64,000 bases of DNA from an uncultured Hyphomicrobiales bacterium. Its GTDB lineage: Bacteria; Pseudomonadota; Alphaproteobacteria; Rhizobiales; TMED25. Where the stretch lies: positions 1,225-65,224 of the forward strand of contig CAJIYR010000004.1 of NCBI GenBank assembly GCA_905181735.1. Reading direction: 5' to 3'. The position numbers and the translations under genes are program-made. Positions 49,771 through 56,677 of the stretch are shown piece after piece; the stretch's first letter is position 1, and each line of letters begins with the position of its first letter. The notes below the pieces were generated by a model, which was not told the origin of the DNA, searched no databases, and was given only the letters and a program-made list of their open reading frames with translations.

Positions 49771-51954
49771 TTATTTATTTCTTTCTCGGGAAGATGGTCG
49801 AGCAGGTCTTTTTCTTTTTGGAGGCTCTTCGTCAGCATTATTATTTGTGCCTTCTACCTGTTTTCCAGTTTCTTGATCAATGTGTTTCATTGTAAGTCTT
49901 ACTTTGCCTCTGTCATCGAAGCCCATAAGTTTTACAAATACTTTATCACCTTCGTTAACCACTTCTGAAACAGTTTCAGGGCGACCATCGTTTAATTGTG
50001 AAATGTGAACTAATCCATCTTTTGGTCCAAAGAAGTTAACAAAAGCACCAAAATCTACTACTTTTACAACATTACCTTCATATATCTCTCCAACTTCTGG
50101 TTCCGCAACAATCATATGTATTTTTTCCAGAGCAAGCTCAATTGATGCTTTGTTCGCTGAAGCTACGGTAACAACTCCGTTATCTTCAACACTAATTTGA
50201 GCACCACTTTCTTCAACCATTTGTTTGATAATTTTTCCACCAGCTCCAATGATATCGCGGATTTTATCTACTGGAATATTTACAGTAACTATTCTTGGTG
50301 CAAATTCCCCTACATCATTTCTAGATTCTGTTATTACTTTAGCCATTTCTCCTAAGATGTGTGTTCTACCTTTTTTTGCTTGAGCTAAGGCTATTTTCAT
50401 AATATCTTCTGTTATTCCAGATATCTTAATATCCATTTGTAGAGTTGTTACGCCTTCAGAAGTACCTGCAACTTTAAAGTCCATATCACCAAGATGATCC
50501 TCGTCTCCAAGAATATCAGATAGAACTGCAAAGTCTTTTCCTTCAAGTATTAAACCCATTGCAATTCCAGCAACTGGACTTTTTATCGGCACACCAGCAT
50601 CCATTAATGCGAGTGATGTTCCACAAACTGTTGCCATTGATGATGAACCGTTTGACTCAGTGATTTCTGAAACAACTCTTATAGTGTATGGAAAATCTTC
50701 TTTGTTAGGTAGCACGGGATGAATTGCTCTCCAGGCTAATTTCCCATGACCAACTTCTCTTCTACTTGTGAATCCTGTTCTTCCAACTTCACCAACAGAA
50801 TATGGAGGGAAATTATAATGTAACATGAAAGATTGTTTGTAAGTTCCATTTAATGAATCAACATATTGTTCATCTTGTCCTGTTCCAAGAGTTGCAACGG
50901 CAATTGCTTGGGTTTCTCCACGTGTAAATAATGCAGAGCCATGAGTTCTAGGAAGAACTGCAATTTCAGATACTATAGGTCTAATATCTTCAAGACCTCT
51001 TCCATCAATTCTTTTTGATGTTTTTAGTATAGATTGTCGTACTATACTTTTTTCTACAGTTTTAAAACAACTTAAAATATCATTCTGATCATAATTAATT
51101 TCTTCATTGGGATTAAGTTCAGCAATTACTTTGTCTTTAATGCCAGATAGGGTTGATTGTCTTTCTTTCTTGTCGGCAATTTTATATGCCTTTGTAACGT
51201 CTGTTTTAATTATTTTTTCTATTTTTGCATCTAATTCTGAGTGATCAGAGATTTCTATTTCTCTCATGTCTTTAGCAGATTTTTGAGCTAGTTTTATTAT
51301 CATGTCAATTACAGGCTGCATATTACTGTGTGCGAACATCACACCACCAAGCATAATATCTTCTGATAATTCTTTTGCTTCTGACTCAATCATGAGTACA
51401 GCATTTTTTGTTCCAGCAACAACTAAGTCGAGAGATGAATCCAAGAGTTCTTCAGTTTTAGGGTTAAGGACGTATTCATTGTTTATATATCCTATTCTTG
51501 CTGCACCAACCGGTCCTTTAAATGGGATTCCAGATATTGTTAAAGCCGCCGAACATGCAATAATAGAAATTATATCAGGATCATTTTCTGTATCATGTGA
51601 CAGTACTGTTGCTATAACTTGTGTTTCATTTTTAAATTCTTTAACAAAAAGAGGTCTGATTGGCCTGTCAATTAATCTTGACACTAACGTTTCTTTTTCC
51701 GTTGGACGACCTTCACGTTTGAAATATCCGCCTGGTATTCTACCTGCAGCGTAAGCTTTTTCTTGATAGTTTACTGTTAAAGGGAAGAAATCTAAGCCAG
51801 GTTTTGGTTTTTGTTCTGCGCAAACAGTTGCCAAAACAGTTGTTTCTCCATAAGTTACGATCACAGACCCATCAGCCTGTCTAGCTACTTTGCCAGTCTC
51901 AATTTTTAAAGTGCGATTTCCCCAAATAATTTCTTCACTATGTGTCTTAAACAT
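49771..51954 (-). CDS. pnp: polyribonucleotide nucleotidyltransferase
   Basis: [40 protein letters not shown] and S1 domains. Confidence 0.98.
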
Positions 51955-52010
51955 TATATCTCTTTCGTTATGTAAAAACTATATTTCTACATCTATGGTT
52001 TATTTTAATA

Positions 52011-52280
52011 TTAACGGCGTATTCCTAATTCTTTGATTATAGTTTGATAACGTTCTTCATTGTTTAATTTTATATAATCAAGATGTTTTCTTCTTTGGCT
52101 AACCATTTTTAATAACCCTCTCCTAGAATGGTTGTCTTTTTTGTGGGTTTTGAAATGTTCTGTAAGATTTTTTATTCTTTCTGTTAGTACTGCTATCTGT
52201 ACATGGGATGATCCAGTATCATTTGGATTAATAGCATATTCTTTTATTAGTTCTTGTTTTCTTTCACTTGTAATCGACAT
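52011..52280 (-). CDS. rpsO: 30S ribosomal protein S15
   Basis: [21 protein letters not shown]. Confidence 0.98.
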
Positions 52281-52282
52281 CT

Positions 52283-53212
52283 TTATTCTCCTATTTTTTG
52301 ATCTTCTATATTTAGAACACGAATTGGTCTTAAAACATTTTCATTAATTTTACATAATGCAATTAATTTTTTTTCAAATATTGCATATGCATCCCTATTA
52401 TTTCCTATATATTCAGGGCTAAGAGGGATAGATAATCCTGTCTTAAGTTTATTTGCTTCTTGTTTACTTACGTTAACTGCCAGGATGTCGTCCAGCACAG
52501 TCTCAATAGGTTGTATAAACAAATATAAATTATCTATACCATGGTTTATTTCAATAAGTCTATCAATAGATACAATAATTTTATTAAAAAAAGGACCGTA
52601 AGCAGTTCTTTCAAGTTTAGTTATGTGACCGTATGTCCCTAAACATCTTCCAAAATCACGAGCCAATGACCTTACATATGTACCCTTACCACAGGTAACT
52701 TCAAAAGACATTTCTTTTTCTGATATTTTTTCTAATATTTTTATAGTTTCAATTTTTACCTTATTTTTTGATAACAGAGGAATTTCACCGTCTCTCGAAA
52801 TTTTATAAGCTCTTTTTCCATTAATTTTTTTTGCTGAATAGTTTGGAGGGAGTTGATCAATCTCTCCAATAAATTTAGGTAAAATATTTTTTATATCAAT
52901 GAGATTTGGATAAAGGTTTTTTTTATTTATAATGTTACCCGTTGAATCATCTGTATCAGTTTCTTCTCCCCACTTTACAGTAAAGGTATAGGTTTTTTTT
53001 GAATCCATAAGGTATGAAACAGTTTTTGTTGCTTCGCCAATAGCAATTGGCAAAATACCAGTTGCCATCGGATCCAATGTACCTCCGTGCCCAACTTTTT
53101 TTACATTAAATTTTCTTTTAATAATCCTAACAATGTCAGTAGAGGTTAGGCCAAGAGGCTTGTCCACTACAACCCAGCCGTGTAATTGGTTTTTTTTGTA
53201 TACTTTATCCAT
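52283..53212 (-). CDS. truB: tRNA pseudouridine(55) synthase
   Basis: [34 protein letters not shown]-like tail. Confidence 0.97.
52476..52501 (-). promoter_or_regulatory. candidate S15 autoregulatory RNA element embedded in truB
   Basis: ACUGUGCUGGA-CGACA-UCCUGGCAGU hairpin; six consecutive GC-ending codons; CGACAUC is complementary to GAUGUCG at the rpsO start. Confidence 0.6.
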
Positions 53213-53225
53213 ACTATGGCTGTGC

Positions 53226-53612
53226 TTACAAATCTTTTTGTGATGAAGATTTTAATAAATCATTGATATGGCTGGAGTAGGCAAAAGAAGTATCTTCTTT
53301 AAAATATATGCCAGGTATATGCTTTAAGGATACCATTGTTGCAACACGACCCCTTATAAATTTAACATTCTTGTTTAGTGCAGTTATGGTTTTTTCTATT
53401 TTTAAGCCGCCAAGTGGCATAATGTAAGCAATAGCTTTTTTTAAATCAGGAGTTACTTCAACTTCAGTGATTGTGATTGTTGCATCCATTAAATCCTGAT
53501 CGTATATTTCATTTTTTATCATCATTTCAGATAAAGCGTGTCTAATCAGTTCCCCAACTCTTAATTGGCGTTGTGATGATTTATTTTTAGGTTGTTTTTT
53601 TGAATCTAACAT
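53226..53612 (-). CDS. rbfA: ribosome-binding factor A
   Basis: RQLRVGELIRH, TITEV..TPDL..A, P.I.F..D.S. Confidence 0.96.
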   Translation of the reverse strand: MLDSKKQPKNKSSQRQLRVGELIRHALSEMMIKNEIYDQDLMDATITITEVEVTPDLKKAIAYIMPLGGLKIEKTITALNKNVKFIRGRVATMVSLKHIPGIYFKEDTSFAYSSHINDLLKSSSQKDL

Positions 53613-53638
53613 ATTTTTGCTAAGAGCTAAATTATCAA

Positions 53639-56110
53639 TTACAGTGTTCGTTCAATGGTTTCAAGTTCATAACACTCTATGATATCGCCTTGTTTTATAT
53701 CCTGATGATTTTTAAACGCGATGCCACATTCTTGGCCAACTCGAACTTCTTTAACTTCCTCTGTAAATCTTTTTAGAGTTGATAATTTTCCTTCATGAAT
53801 AACTACACTATCTCTAATAAGTCGAAGATTTTCTTTATTTTTAACTATACCATCTGTCACCGTGCATCCTGCAATTTTACCAACTTTAGAAATATAAAAT
53901 ACCTCTAATACCTTTGCATTACCCACAATAGTTTCTTTGATTGTTGGGTCAAGCATTCCAGATAGAGCTGATTTGATATCATCAATAAGATTATATATTA
54001 TAGAGTACTGTCTTATTTCAATGCTATCTTTGTCGGCAAGAGCTTTTGCTTGCACATTTGGTCTTACATTAAATGCTATAATCAGTGCATTTGATGCTAG
54101 CGCAAGTGAAATATCTGATTCAGTTACCCCACCAACCCCTCCGTGTATTAATCTTACAGCAACTTCTTCTGTGGAAAGATTGTTTATAGCGGTTGAGATA
54201 TCTTCAACAGATCCTTGTGCATCACCCTTAAGCAGTACAGGCAATTCTTTAAGCTCTTTTTCTTTAAGTTGACCCATCATATATTCAAGTGTTGTTCGTT
54301 TTCCTACTCCGCTAGCATAGTTATCCTTTAATTTTCTTTTTCTATATTCTGTGATCTCTCTTGCTCTTGATTCACTTGCTATCACAGCGAATTGATCTCC
54401 TGCCTCTGGTATTCCGTTTATTCCCAATACTTCTACAGGCATAGATGGAATGGCTTCTTTTATGCTTTCTCCTTGATCGTTTGTTAAGGCTCTTACTTTG
54501 CCCCATTGCGAACCTAAAACAACAATATCGCCAATATTTAGTTTTCCTCTTTGCACCAGAACAGTCGCAACTGGACCTCTTCCACGATCTAAGGTTGATT
54601 CAATAACTATACCATCAGCTGCTCTATTTGGATTTGCAGTTAATTCTAACAATTCAGATTGCAATGATATTGCATCTAGCAGCTTATCTAAATTTTGTTT
54701 TTTTAAAGCTGAAACCTCCACTTCTAAGATATCTCCACTCATTGATTCAACAATAATACCGTGCTGTAACAGTTCATTTCTTACTCTATTTGGATCAGCA
54801 CCTTCTACGTCAATTTTATTTATTGCTACAATAATTGGAACACCAGCTTCTTTAGAATGGTTAATTGCTTCAATTGTTTGAGGCATAACACCGTCATCGG
54901 CTGCTACAACTAAGACTACAATATCAGTTGCTTTTGCTCCTCTAGCCCTCATAGATGTAAATGCAGCATGCCCAGGTGTATCAAGAAATGTAATTATGTT
55001 GTTTGAATTTGTGGTTAATTGATAGGCGCCTATATGTTGGGTTATGCCTCCGGCTTCTCCAGTAACAACATTTGTTTTTCGTAGGGCATCTAACAAAGAT
55101 GTTTTACCATGATCTACGTGTCCCATTATTGTCACAACAGGTGCTCGGGATTCTAGATTTTCTGATAAATCATCGTTACCATGTAATCCCTCTTCTACAT
55201 CTGCATCAGAAACCCTTTTAACTATGTGTCCCATCTCTTCCGCTATTAATTGAGCAGTATCTGCATCTATTGTATCGGTGATTTTAGACATCTGGCCTTG
55301 TTTCATTAGAAGCTTTATTACATCAACCGATCTTTCGGCCATTCTATTTGCAAGTTCTTGTATTGTTATTGCTTCTGGAAGAATAACTTCTCTACTAATT
55401 TTTTGTTGAATATCAAAACCAAGAGATTGCCTTTTTTCACGTTCACGGCGTCTCCTTATGGACGCTAATGAGCGATGTCGAGGAGTATCATCTAGAGCTT
55501 TGGTAACAGTTAGTTTTGTTTTCCTTCGTTCGTCTTGGCCAAGTGTTTTAGTTTGTTTTAAATTTGTCTTTTTTCTCCCTTCCTGATCATCATCTATTGA
55601 TTCTTCACTTACAGGAGATCTTTTGTTCTTTCGTGAATTTTCTGCCTCAGTATCAGCGGCTTCCTTTTTAGGTATATTAACGTTATCTTTGTCATCATCG
55701 CCTTGATTTTTTTTGCTGTTTACTTCTAAATCTTCACGTAAAAATTGTTCAGGGCTCTCATTGAGCTTTTTTTCTTTATTTTTAGATATTTCTGTTTCTT
55801 TATTTTTAGATTCAATTAAAGCCTGCGTACGCGCGTCCTGTTCGCTTGTTGTAAGAGTACTGTTATTTAGCCCAGCATCTAAAGGTTCTTTACTTATAGC
55901 TTTTTCTTTATTAAAAACATTATCTGCATCACTAATGGCATCTGTAGGCCTAATAATTCTTTTTCTCTTTGTCTCTACAATTACAGAATTTGACCTGCCT
56001 TGAGAAAAGCTTGATTTAACCTGATTTGGGCTTATTGCCCCTTTTAGACTAAGAGTTTTCTTACCTGTTAGTGAAAGTTTTTTTTCTGTTGTGTCTTTTA
56101 TATCTGTCAT
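53639..56110 (-). CDS. infB: translation initiation factor IF-2
   Basis: [32 protein letters not shown]. Confidence 0.98.
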
Positions 56111-56116
56111 ATTTTT

Positions 56117-56677
56117 TTATCTTATATAGTTGTTATATTGGGCGATAGAGTTAATTATTATATTTGCCATATTACCTGTTTTAACACATAAATGCACAGT
56201 ATTTTCTTTTCCAATAATTTTACTTATTTCATCAGTATCGAATATATTGAACATAAAAATATCTTTACCACACGCTGACTCTAATTTTTTTTTCCCATCA
56301 ATTCCAGCATCGCTAGCTGTAAAAAGTATCCTTGTTAGCTTATTTTTTATGCAATCTAAAACTTTTGTATACCCCAATACTACATCGCCCGCTTTTATTG
56401 CAATGTTAATATTATTTGAAATTTCTTTCTTGTATAAATTTTCTATTTTTGAAGCCAAATCACTTATCTCAATAGTCTTTATATTTAATTCATTGTTAAA
56501 AATATTTTCTTTAATAGCTAACTGTATAATATTTTTATTTGATTTAATCCACAGTTCGTTTCCAGGTAACTTTTTTTTTAAATCGGGTATGATTCTATCA
56601 TTTGACGTAACAACTAAACGCAACATCGCATCTGTTGGTAACGTTTCCTTTGTTGCTATGCAGGTTCGATGTTCCAT
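56117..56677 (-). CDS. YlxR/DUF448 plus L7Ae-like RNA-binding protein
   Basis: RTCIAT...LR.V...PDL..KLPG, then KAG.VV.G and A.DA..DG..KL; lies between nusA and infB. Confidence 0.8.
   Translation of the reverse strand: MEHRTCIATKETLPTDAMLRLVVTSNDRIIPDLKKKLPGNELWIKSNKNIIQLAIKENIFNNELNIKTIEISDLASKIENLYKKEISNNINIAIKAGDVVLGYTKVLDCIKNKLTRILFTASDAGIDGKKKLESACGKDIFMFNIFDTDEISKIIGKENTVHLCVKTGNMANIIINSIAQYNNYIR

Follow-up and report, generated by a model that had tools for sequence, protein, structure and literature searches.

Autoregulation by ribosomal protein S15 is a textbook case of independently evolved RNA regulators, and its alphaproteobacterial version has so far been set apart from the rpsO pseudoknot operator of Escherichia coli (Rfam S15, accession RF00114) and viewed as a plain 5' leader with two hairpins. 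The present work concerns a putative operator of the alphaproteobacterial kind in a 64,000-nucleotide (nt) stretch of DNA from an uncultured Hyphomicrobiales bacterium (GenBank assembly GCA_905181735.1, contig CAJIYR010000004.1), which is referred to at its full length as the window. In this window a hairpin at 52497..52478 lies within the coding sequence of truB, the gene immediately upstream of the S15 gene rpsO, and by sequence match it is the helix designated H1 of the alphaproteobacterial S15 autoregulatory leader, and so a member of a known, experimentally validated family. The hairpin in truB probably serves as the hairpin of an S15 autoregulatory leader whose loop pairs with the rpsO start as a pseudoknot, in which case repression would follow from stabilization of that fold by S15.

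The published description of the leader (Slinger et al. 2014, BMC Genomics 15:657; PMC4137082) calls H1 the "most highly conserved" helix, and the alignment in its Additional file 1 gives it as guGCUGG.ACGACAUC...CCGGCac, with the core ..GCUGG.ACGACAUC...CCGGC.. in Ruegeria, Brucella, Ochrobactrum, Agrobacterium, Rhodobacter and Caulobacter and with a covarying stem, GCUGA...UCGGC, in Bartonella. According to the same paper, the Rhizobium radiobacter leader RNA binds S15 in vitro with a dissociation constant of about 12-21 nM, mutations in the H1 stem abolish both binding and regulation, a compensatory mutant restores both in part, and a GFP fusion shows an S15-dependent repression of about 4-fold in E. 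coli as a surrogate host. In R. radiobacter both H1 (-65..-42) and a second helix, H2 (-28..-23 with -12..-8), are reported to be needed for S15, which binds the two together and represses rpsO translation; H2, whose 3' half contains the ribosome-binding site, is called poorly conserved, and in about half of the published examples H1 and H2 are separated by a "long linker (up to 400 nt)" (PMC4137082). The RNA is treated there as a 5' leader, and the name truB has no occurrence in the main text. A GU/GC motif in the most conserved part of the leader has been named as the likely determinant of S15 recognition (PMC4684408).

Three features of this family are present in the window, namely the H1 stem with its 8-nt loop, the GU/GC motif, and a position upstream of rpsO on the coding strand. 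The sequence at 52498..52477 reads GUGCUGG-ACGACAUC-CUGGCAG, with the loop 210 nt 5' of the rpsO ATG on the same strand, and it includes six truB codons (239-244, GTG CTG GAC GAC ATC CTG, 52498..52481) that all end in G or C. The truB stop codon TAA (52285..52283) is followed by AG and then by the rpsO ATG at 52280, a spacer of 2 nt, and the heptamer CGACATC at 52490..52484 is the exact reverse complement of G-ATG-TCG at 52281..52275. A first-pass annotation made from the sequence alone had reported these coordinates, sequences, the spacer and the exact complementarity, all of which are accurate on rereading of the sequence, and had proposed a coding-embedded RNA element acting as an S15 operator, an assignment that the match to H1 bears out as a putative one in this organism. 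It had also mentioned a described alphaproteobacterial S15 leader whose identity with the element it left unverified; the same H1 helix and loop are found in the alignment of Slinger et al. In the Caulobacter row of that alignment, moreover, the "linker" reads in frame as TruB when inspected for the present work, so the published long-linker form is the truB-embedded form.

If the complementarity between the H1 loop and the rpsO start reflects a genuine interaction, then loci in which the loop varies should show corresponding changes in the initiation region. Variation was sampled in 90 of the 164 class genomes that lack the exact 16-mer motif described below, with rpsO found in 89 of them, and the position of H1 was taken via alignment of the TruB protein, which makes the extraction blind to the loop sequence. 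From 149 loci, the removal of 2 unpublished ones (G280 and G080), 3 without rpsO, 15 without an aligned 21-mer and 10 with an uncertain start left 119, and 109 of these carry H1. Wherever the loop is CGACAUC, rpsO starts with G-AUG-UCG (85 of 85 loci, in 53 families), even though TCG makes up 6.2% of the serine codons in the genome of the window and G stands at -1 in 117 of its 1290 open reading frames. The association between loop and start, counted by family with kin not being independent, is 53/0 versus 3/17 (Fisher p = 6e-14). Among the variant loops, UGGCAUC occurs with G-AUG-UCA (family f70, two genera) and GGACAUU with A-AUG-UCC (family f101), while CGGCAUC keeps G-AUG-UCG in 4 loci by means of a G.U pair. 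In the loci with loop CGGUAUC (12 loci, 10 families) position -1 is never G (0/12), the second codon is TCG, TCA, TCT, TCC or ACC, and 18-30 nt upstream, directly before the Shine-Dalgarno sequence, stands a partner reading GAUACCG, GAUACUG or GGUACUG; the same place holds the partners in the pairs CGGCAUC:GAUGCCG, CGGCAUA:UAUGCCG and CGAUAUC:GAUAUCG.

An ungapped partner matching at 7/7 positions within -60..+9 is present in 21 of 24 variant loci, 11 of them with Watson-Crick pairs throughout, compared with a mean of 0.73 (maximum 5) for 1000 loop shuffles and with 0 for both the linker control and the reversed loop. Nine named public loci were added, eight of which have the loop CGGCAUC with GAUG-N-CCG overlapping the Shine-Dalgarno sequence; when a 1-nt bulge is allowed, a partner is found at the start codon, at the Shine-Dalgarno sequence or just 5' of it in all 33 variant loci, where shuffled loops give a mean of 4.1 (maximum 11). 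In an alignment that omits only L138, a stretch of 80 nt whose loop and start are the consensus ones, and so holds 108 of the 109 loci with H1, 96.3% of the pseudoknot cells are paired, 2 of the 7 pairs are changed on both sides, and 0-3 of 500 shuffles reach the observed measures, kin again not being independent. The energy of the loop-start duplex is -8.5 to -10.6 kcal/mol. The first-pass annotation had proposed the pairing of CGACAUC with G-AUG-UCG together with covariation as a means of checking it, and the consensus association (85/85), the compensated variants and the relocated partners (33/33) supply that covariation, on the strength of which the long-range pairing is well supported. 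Neither the loop-start pairing nor an H1 located in truB is described in the text of the literature searched (including PMC4137082, PMC4684408, PMC10931766, PMC7247131 and PMC4117421) or in the first 400 or so columns of the published alignment, and the loop-start pseudoknot appears to be previously undescribed.

The geometry of the two helices is compact, with one unpaired base (A52491) before the 7-base-pair second helix, 0 nt between this helix and the 3' arm of H1, and the 196-nt tail of truB as the third loop. Such a layout is that of a coaxially stacked H-type pseudoknot, and the loop CGACAUC and G-AUG-UCG are inferred to form one here. In the proposed mechanism, to which the covariation points, the pairing of CGACAUC with G-AUG-UCG at the rpsO start would produce an H-type pseudoknot from which the tail of truB is looped out. 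The loop-start helix would bury the AUG and would dock the S15-binding hairpin on the initiation site at any linker length, and bound S15 would then lock the fold, with the 30S subunit either blocked or trapped. Transcripts that start inside truB, on which H1 is untranslated, are probably those on which the element would act; on read-through transcripts, ribosomes that finish truB 2 nt before the AUG would plausibly melt it, as the first-pass annotation had suggested for ribosomes translating truB.

A number of observations weigh against this reading, and they are considered here together with the explanations that they favour. The most probable of these alternatives, itself unlikely, holds that H1 binds S15 but that its loop contacts the protein only, the complementarity to the start being no functional pairing and the start context being kept for the efficiency of initiation. 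The authors of the published leader read the conserved loop as a protein contact, and by their account the RNAs -108..+5 and -108..-6, which lack the start codon, equal or surpass the full-length RNA in S15 binding (PMC4137082). Binding in vitro therefore does not require the pseudoknot, which would belong to the expression platform. Both heptamers are invariant in most lineages, which leaves most pseudoknot cells without a covariation signal, and only a limited number of lineages, counted in disregard of phylogeny, supply the compensated states. A control region inside rpsO (+60..+129) also gives matches in 4 of the 24 variant loci, because the conserved Asp-Thr-Gly codons read GAUACUG. A loop that served only as a protein contact would nevertheless leave several results unaccounted for: several families carry compensated variants, the move of the partner to the Shine-Dalgarno region coincides exactly with a change in the loop, loss of G at -1 and of the rare TCG codon is confined to loci whose loop has ceased to match them (0/12 versus 85/85), and the shuffled-loop and reversed-loop controls fail.

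The remaining points on this side concern the strength of the signal within the one genome and the second helix of the published model. Runs of at least six G/C-ending codons number 61 in 1206 open reading frames, where 49 are expected at a G+C content of third codon positions (GC3) of 0.23; the truB run is one of the 61, and what the first-pass annotation had called striking is statistically ordinary. The fold of the hairpin (-8.5 kcal/mol) has z = -0.66 relative to shuffles, and the 266-nt region has z = -1.31. The conserved register, GUGCUGG/CUGGCAG with the 8-nt loop, reaches only -5.7 kcal/mol here, with tandem G.U pairs, which makes for a weak H1, and the -8.5 kcal/mol minimum for the single sequence belongs to another register, GGA-CGACA-UCC, which buries 2 of the 7 loop bases. 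It was this second register that the first-pass annotation had drawn, so that its hairpin stands at the place given for it but differs in register from the one favoured by the comparative data and the published model. In 64 of 1290 open reading frames (5.0%) the 400 nt upstream contain a heptamer perfectly complementary to the gene's own -1..+6 region, in only 3 of them with at least 4 G/C. With codon run, fold z scores and heptamer frequency all unremarkable, the observation is weak when taken alone. A search with covariance models for an S15 leader, which the first-pass annotation had suggested, came out negative: Rfam cmscan of 50000..56500 in the window, up to E = 10, gave six chance-level matches, none of them S15-related, and 16 related loci gave no match at the Rfam gathering score. 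The alphaproteobacterial S15 leader family seems to be absent from Rfam 15. As to H2, RNAalifold predicted 0 pairs on 12 initiation regions of the family, and folding of the single sequence gives no more than a local AU-rich hairpin, 5' of the Shine-Dalgarno sequence.

The weak H1 and the undetected H2 fit the quite improbable alternative that the hairpin is an element of RNA processing or stability, either an RNase site separating truB from the rpsO-pnp messenger RNA (mRNA) or a 5' protective hairpin, with no S15 sensor in this reduced genome. RNA-library contigs that are identical to the window and cover H1 through rpsO also fit it: each of 4 metatranscriptome runs, taken from 4 studies, has one such contig that spans H1, the truB/rpsO junction and all of rpsO, contigs being proof neither of transcription nor of a single molecule nor of a 5' end. 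Within the same limits these contigs also count on the side of the S15 leader. Against a processing element stand the identity of the sequence to that of a hairpin with demonstrated S15 binding and repression, the retention of the GU/GC motif, and the loop-start complementarity, to which processing gives no role. Long RNA-library contigs end inside truB at 52603, 52635, 52664 and 52668 (about 105-170 nt upstream of H1), with little or no cover of upstream truB; these ends are a lead towards a transcription start internal to truB and are not counted as evidence.

Unlike the statistics of the single genome, comparison across genomes makes the observation of a putative S15 operator hairpin embedded in truB a strong one. 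A TruB relative is present in 41 of 41 related genomes, rpsO follows truB in all 30 fetched order-level loci (spacers 2-228 nt), and S15 relatives are found in 30/30, 30/30 and 29/30 genomes of three sets. Leaving aside the locus of the window itself and a congener (89%), the order-level TruB proteins share 43-52% identity with that of the window. In 29 of the 30 order-level truB loci the codons CTG GAC GAC ATC C[TC]G GC are unchanged at every synonymous site, in genomes of 32-72% GC that include some at 32-37%, and at the RNA level these 29 genes share the unvarying pattern GCUGG-ACGACAUC-CNGGC; synonymous invariance of this kind, persisting into AT-rich genomes, was among the expectations that accompanied the original proposal. 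In the class as a whole, the 16-mer CTGRACGACATCYNGG is present in 237 of 401 genomes, a tally that includes one unpublished genome, and the reversed control pattern has at least 4 matching rows among the matches listed. Of thirty loci taken from the 16-mer matches, 26 carry the motif inside truB at 196-296 nt 5' of rpsO, one has it 133 nt upstream of rpsO with no truB in the locus, and three are unrelated matches in GC-rich genomes. Across truB-embedded loci the distance from loop to start is 188-356 nt. A congener at 91% DNA identity, in which the hairpin falls within a 46-nt identical stretch, was given no weight, as equally long stretches occur elsewhere in truB.

The conservation is that of an RNA, as can be seen where the hairpin and the protein part company. 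The exceptional order-level locus (L029) has a truB that reads CTT AGG CAG ATT CCT (LRQIP), a spacer of 228 nt, and a non-coding copy of the motif 83 nt upstream of rpsO; in five further loci (L155, L158, L163, L167 and L187), with a long spacer or with a truB devoid of the motif, a non-coding H1 precedes rpsO. The original proposal had asked whether the motif persists outside coding sequence, and these six loci give an affirmative answer. The TruB peptide at the site is LRQIP, LADVP, LAELE, LVNLP or LRELP in these loci, and the protein itself seems to need only L-x-x-[IL]-P. In truB genes that bear H1 the first loop base is free, so that residue 241 is D, A, V, G, T, S or R, and the next seven bases do not vary. 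Over 108 loci, 5 of the 7 H1 stem pairs are changed on both sides, with U.G and G.U wobbles that fit the rpsO-sense strand only, and the GU/GC motif columns are C:G in 108/108 loci and U.G in 102/108, both being kept in the window. The LDDI(L/P) peptide of TruB is best read as dictated by the hairpin RNA, a side effect of the element. On another view there is no RNA structure, and the sequence is kept either through the function of the TruB protein, its codons being inherited, or as a site in the DNA, for example a promoter or a palindrome bound by a protein. This view can appeal to LDDIP being a conserved TruB peptide in many lineages and to its codons being preferred in GC-rich genomes, but it is already close to refuted by synonymous sites that are invariant even in genomes with GC3 near 0.23, by the non-coding persistence of the motif beside rpsO while TruB drifts to LxxLP, by stem covariation that includes G.U pairs existing only on the sense RNA, and by a promoter scan of 52200..53300 that found 6 sites where 5.6 are expected, nothing being drawn from the site at 52752..52725.

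The elements of the locus are collected in the table below. The minus strand of the window carries open reading frames for infB, rbfA, truB, rpsO and pnp in that order, in a host genome of 1.39 Mb with 33% GC and a GC3 of 0.23, and the nearest named record by TruB is a marine metagenome-assembled "Rhodobiaceae bacterium" (89% identical).

Table. Positions in the window of the two genes and of the parts of the putative S15 operator.
Feature	Position	Strand	Basis or remark
truB coding sequence (309 amino acids)	52283..53212	-	Open reading frame list; codons 239-245 (VLDDILA) encode the hairpin
rpsO, ribosomal protein S15 (89 amino acids), regulated gene and presumed ligand	52011..52280	-	Open reading frame list
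H1 stem-loop, conserved register	52478..52497	-	Stem 52497-52492 with 52483-52478, 6 pairs, two of them G.U
8-nt H1 loop ACGACAUC	52491-52484	-	Sequence and published alignment
GU/GC motif within H1	52480..52495	-	C52495-G52480 stacked on U52494.G52481
Loop heptamer CGACAUC, 5' strand of the proposed pseudoknot helix	52484..52490	-	Complement of 52281..52275; covariation
Linker, 196 nt, the truB 3' end (C-terminal part of TruB), which the long-range pairing would loop out	52282..52477	-	
Shine-Dalgarno sequence GGAG of rpsO, within the last truB codons	52288..52291	-	Sequence; GGAG/AGGA aligned in relatives
G-AUG-UCG (rpsO -1..+6), 3' strand of the proposed pseudoknot helix	52275..52281	-	

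Several further observations concern these elements and their counterparts elsewhere. Several of the non-coding copies of H1 share their flanks, which read CGACCCUGCUGGACGACAUCCCGGCUGUGGCCGC in L155 and L163, and within one order H1 has moved between the truB reading frame and an intergenic leader. The longest interval between H1 and the start, 356 nt, is that of L114 (genome G170), in which the match of loop to start is retained; about 140 nt of inserted AT-rich sequence with repeated AGATAT/TTATC-like units lie there between truB and rpsO, just upstream of the Shine-Dalgarno sequence. Two loci of family f84, L068 and L130, keep G-AUG-UCG with no H1 at the TruB position (peptide LDSVP); L068, where truB and rpsO are spaced by about 500 nt, has no CGACATC within 700 nt upstream of rpsO. 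In the window the Asp-Thr-Gly codons of rpsO at about 52222..52214 read GAU ACU GG, and the GAUACUG that they contain complements, with one G.U pair, the variant loop CGGUAUC of other lineages; this may be a coincidence or a second pairing option in the lineages with that loop. Short metatranscriptome contigs of relatives match the window only at the H1 motif (52479..52506) and at a conserved stretch of rpsO (52129..52157 or 52228..52256), with 164 or 235 other letters in between, so that in other marine alphaproteobacteria H1 and rpsO lie on one RNA-library contig at other spacings. A terminator-like site (6-base-pair stem with T-rich tail) at 53067..53048 on the minus strand, inside the conserved catalytic part of truB, was the one found by a consensus scan, where 0.4 are expected, and is probably due to chance.

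It is fairly likely that the same architecture holds class-wide, in which case the alphaproteobacterial S15 operator would be a three-element pseudoknot and not a two-hairpin leader. The H1 loop would always pair at the start codon, at the Shine-Dalgarno sequence or just 5' of it, according to lineage, and the tether would permit any position of the hairpin between about 40 and more than 300 nt upstream, in most cases in the truB frame; the RNA, and not the enzyme, would fix the LDDIP of TruB across much of the class, and the architecture would be linked to the E. coli rpsO pseudoknot by convergence or by common ancestry. The key hairpin is usually protein-coding, an RNA signal overprinted on truB that constrains the TruB peptide. 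The covariation between loop and initiation region offers a mechanism, testable by mutation, for the step from binding to repression and for the tolerance of linkers of 40-350 nt. Pipelines for RNA discovery whose search ends where the upstream gene does will overlook or misdescribe elements of this kind.

Three described systems provide the closest comparisons. The L20 operator of the E. coli infC-rpmI-rplT operon is a long-range pseudoknot that joins distant sequences and reaches into the upstream gene; the likeness is that of a ribosomal-protein operator built on long-range pairing, while the protein and the sequences differ and there is no homology. The leader of Slinger et al. shares with the window the H1 stem, the 8-nt loop ACGACAUC, the GU/GC motif and the same-strand position upstream of rpsO. 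It was published as a 5' leader, whereas here and in most of the sampled lineages H1 is truB coding sequence, and the visible structure lines of its alignment draw the H1 loop as a plain unpaired hairpin loop (PMC4137082). H2 is reported as needed in R. radiobacter but was not detected here in the 12 initiation regions. The E. coli rpsO operator has no sequence or covariance-model match to the element in the window, but the two are predicted to work alike, homology not being implied, in that a hairpin loop pairs with the downstream mRNA at the initiation region. The E. coli operator likewise has a GU/GC motif in a coaxial stack that is recognized by S15, and according to the same source the S15 proteins of E. 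coli and R. radiobacter cross-recognize each other's mRNAs (PMC4684408). What would set the present element apart from the E. coli pseudoknot is that its AUG lies inside the second helix and that its connecting loop consists of about 200 nt of coding sequence.

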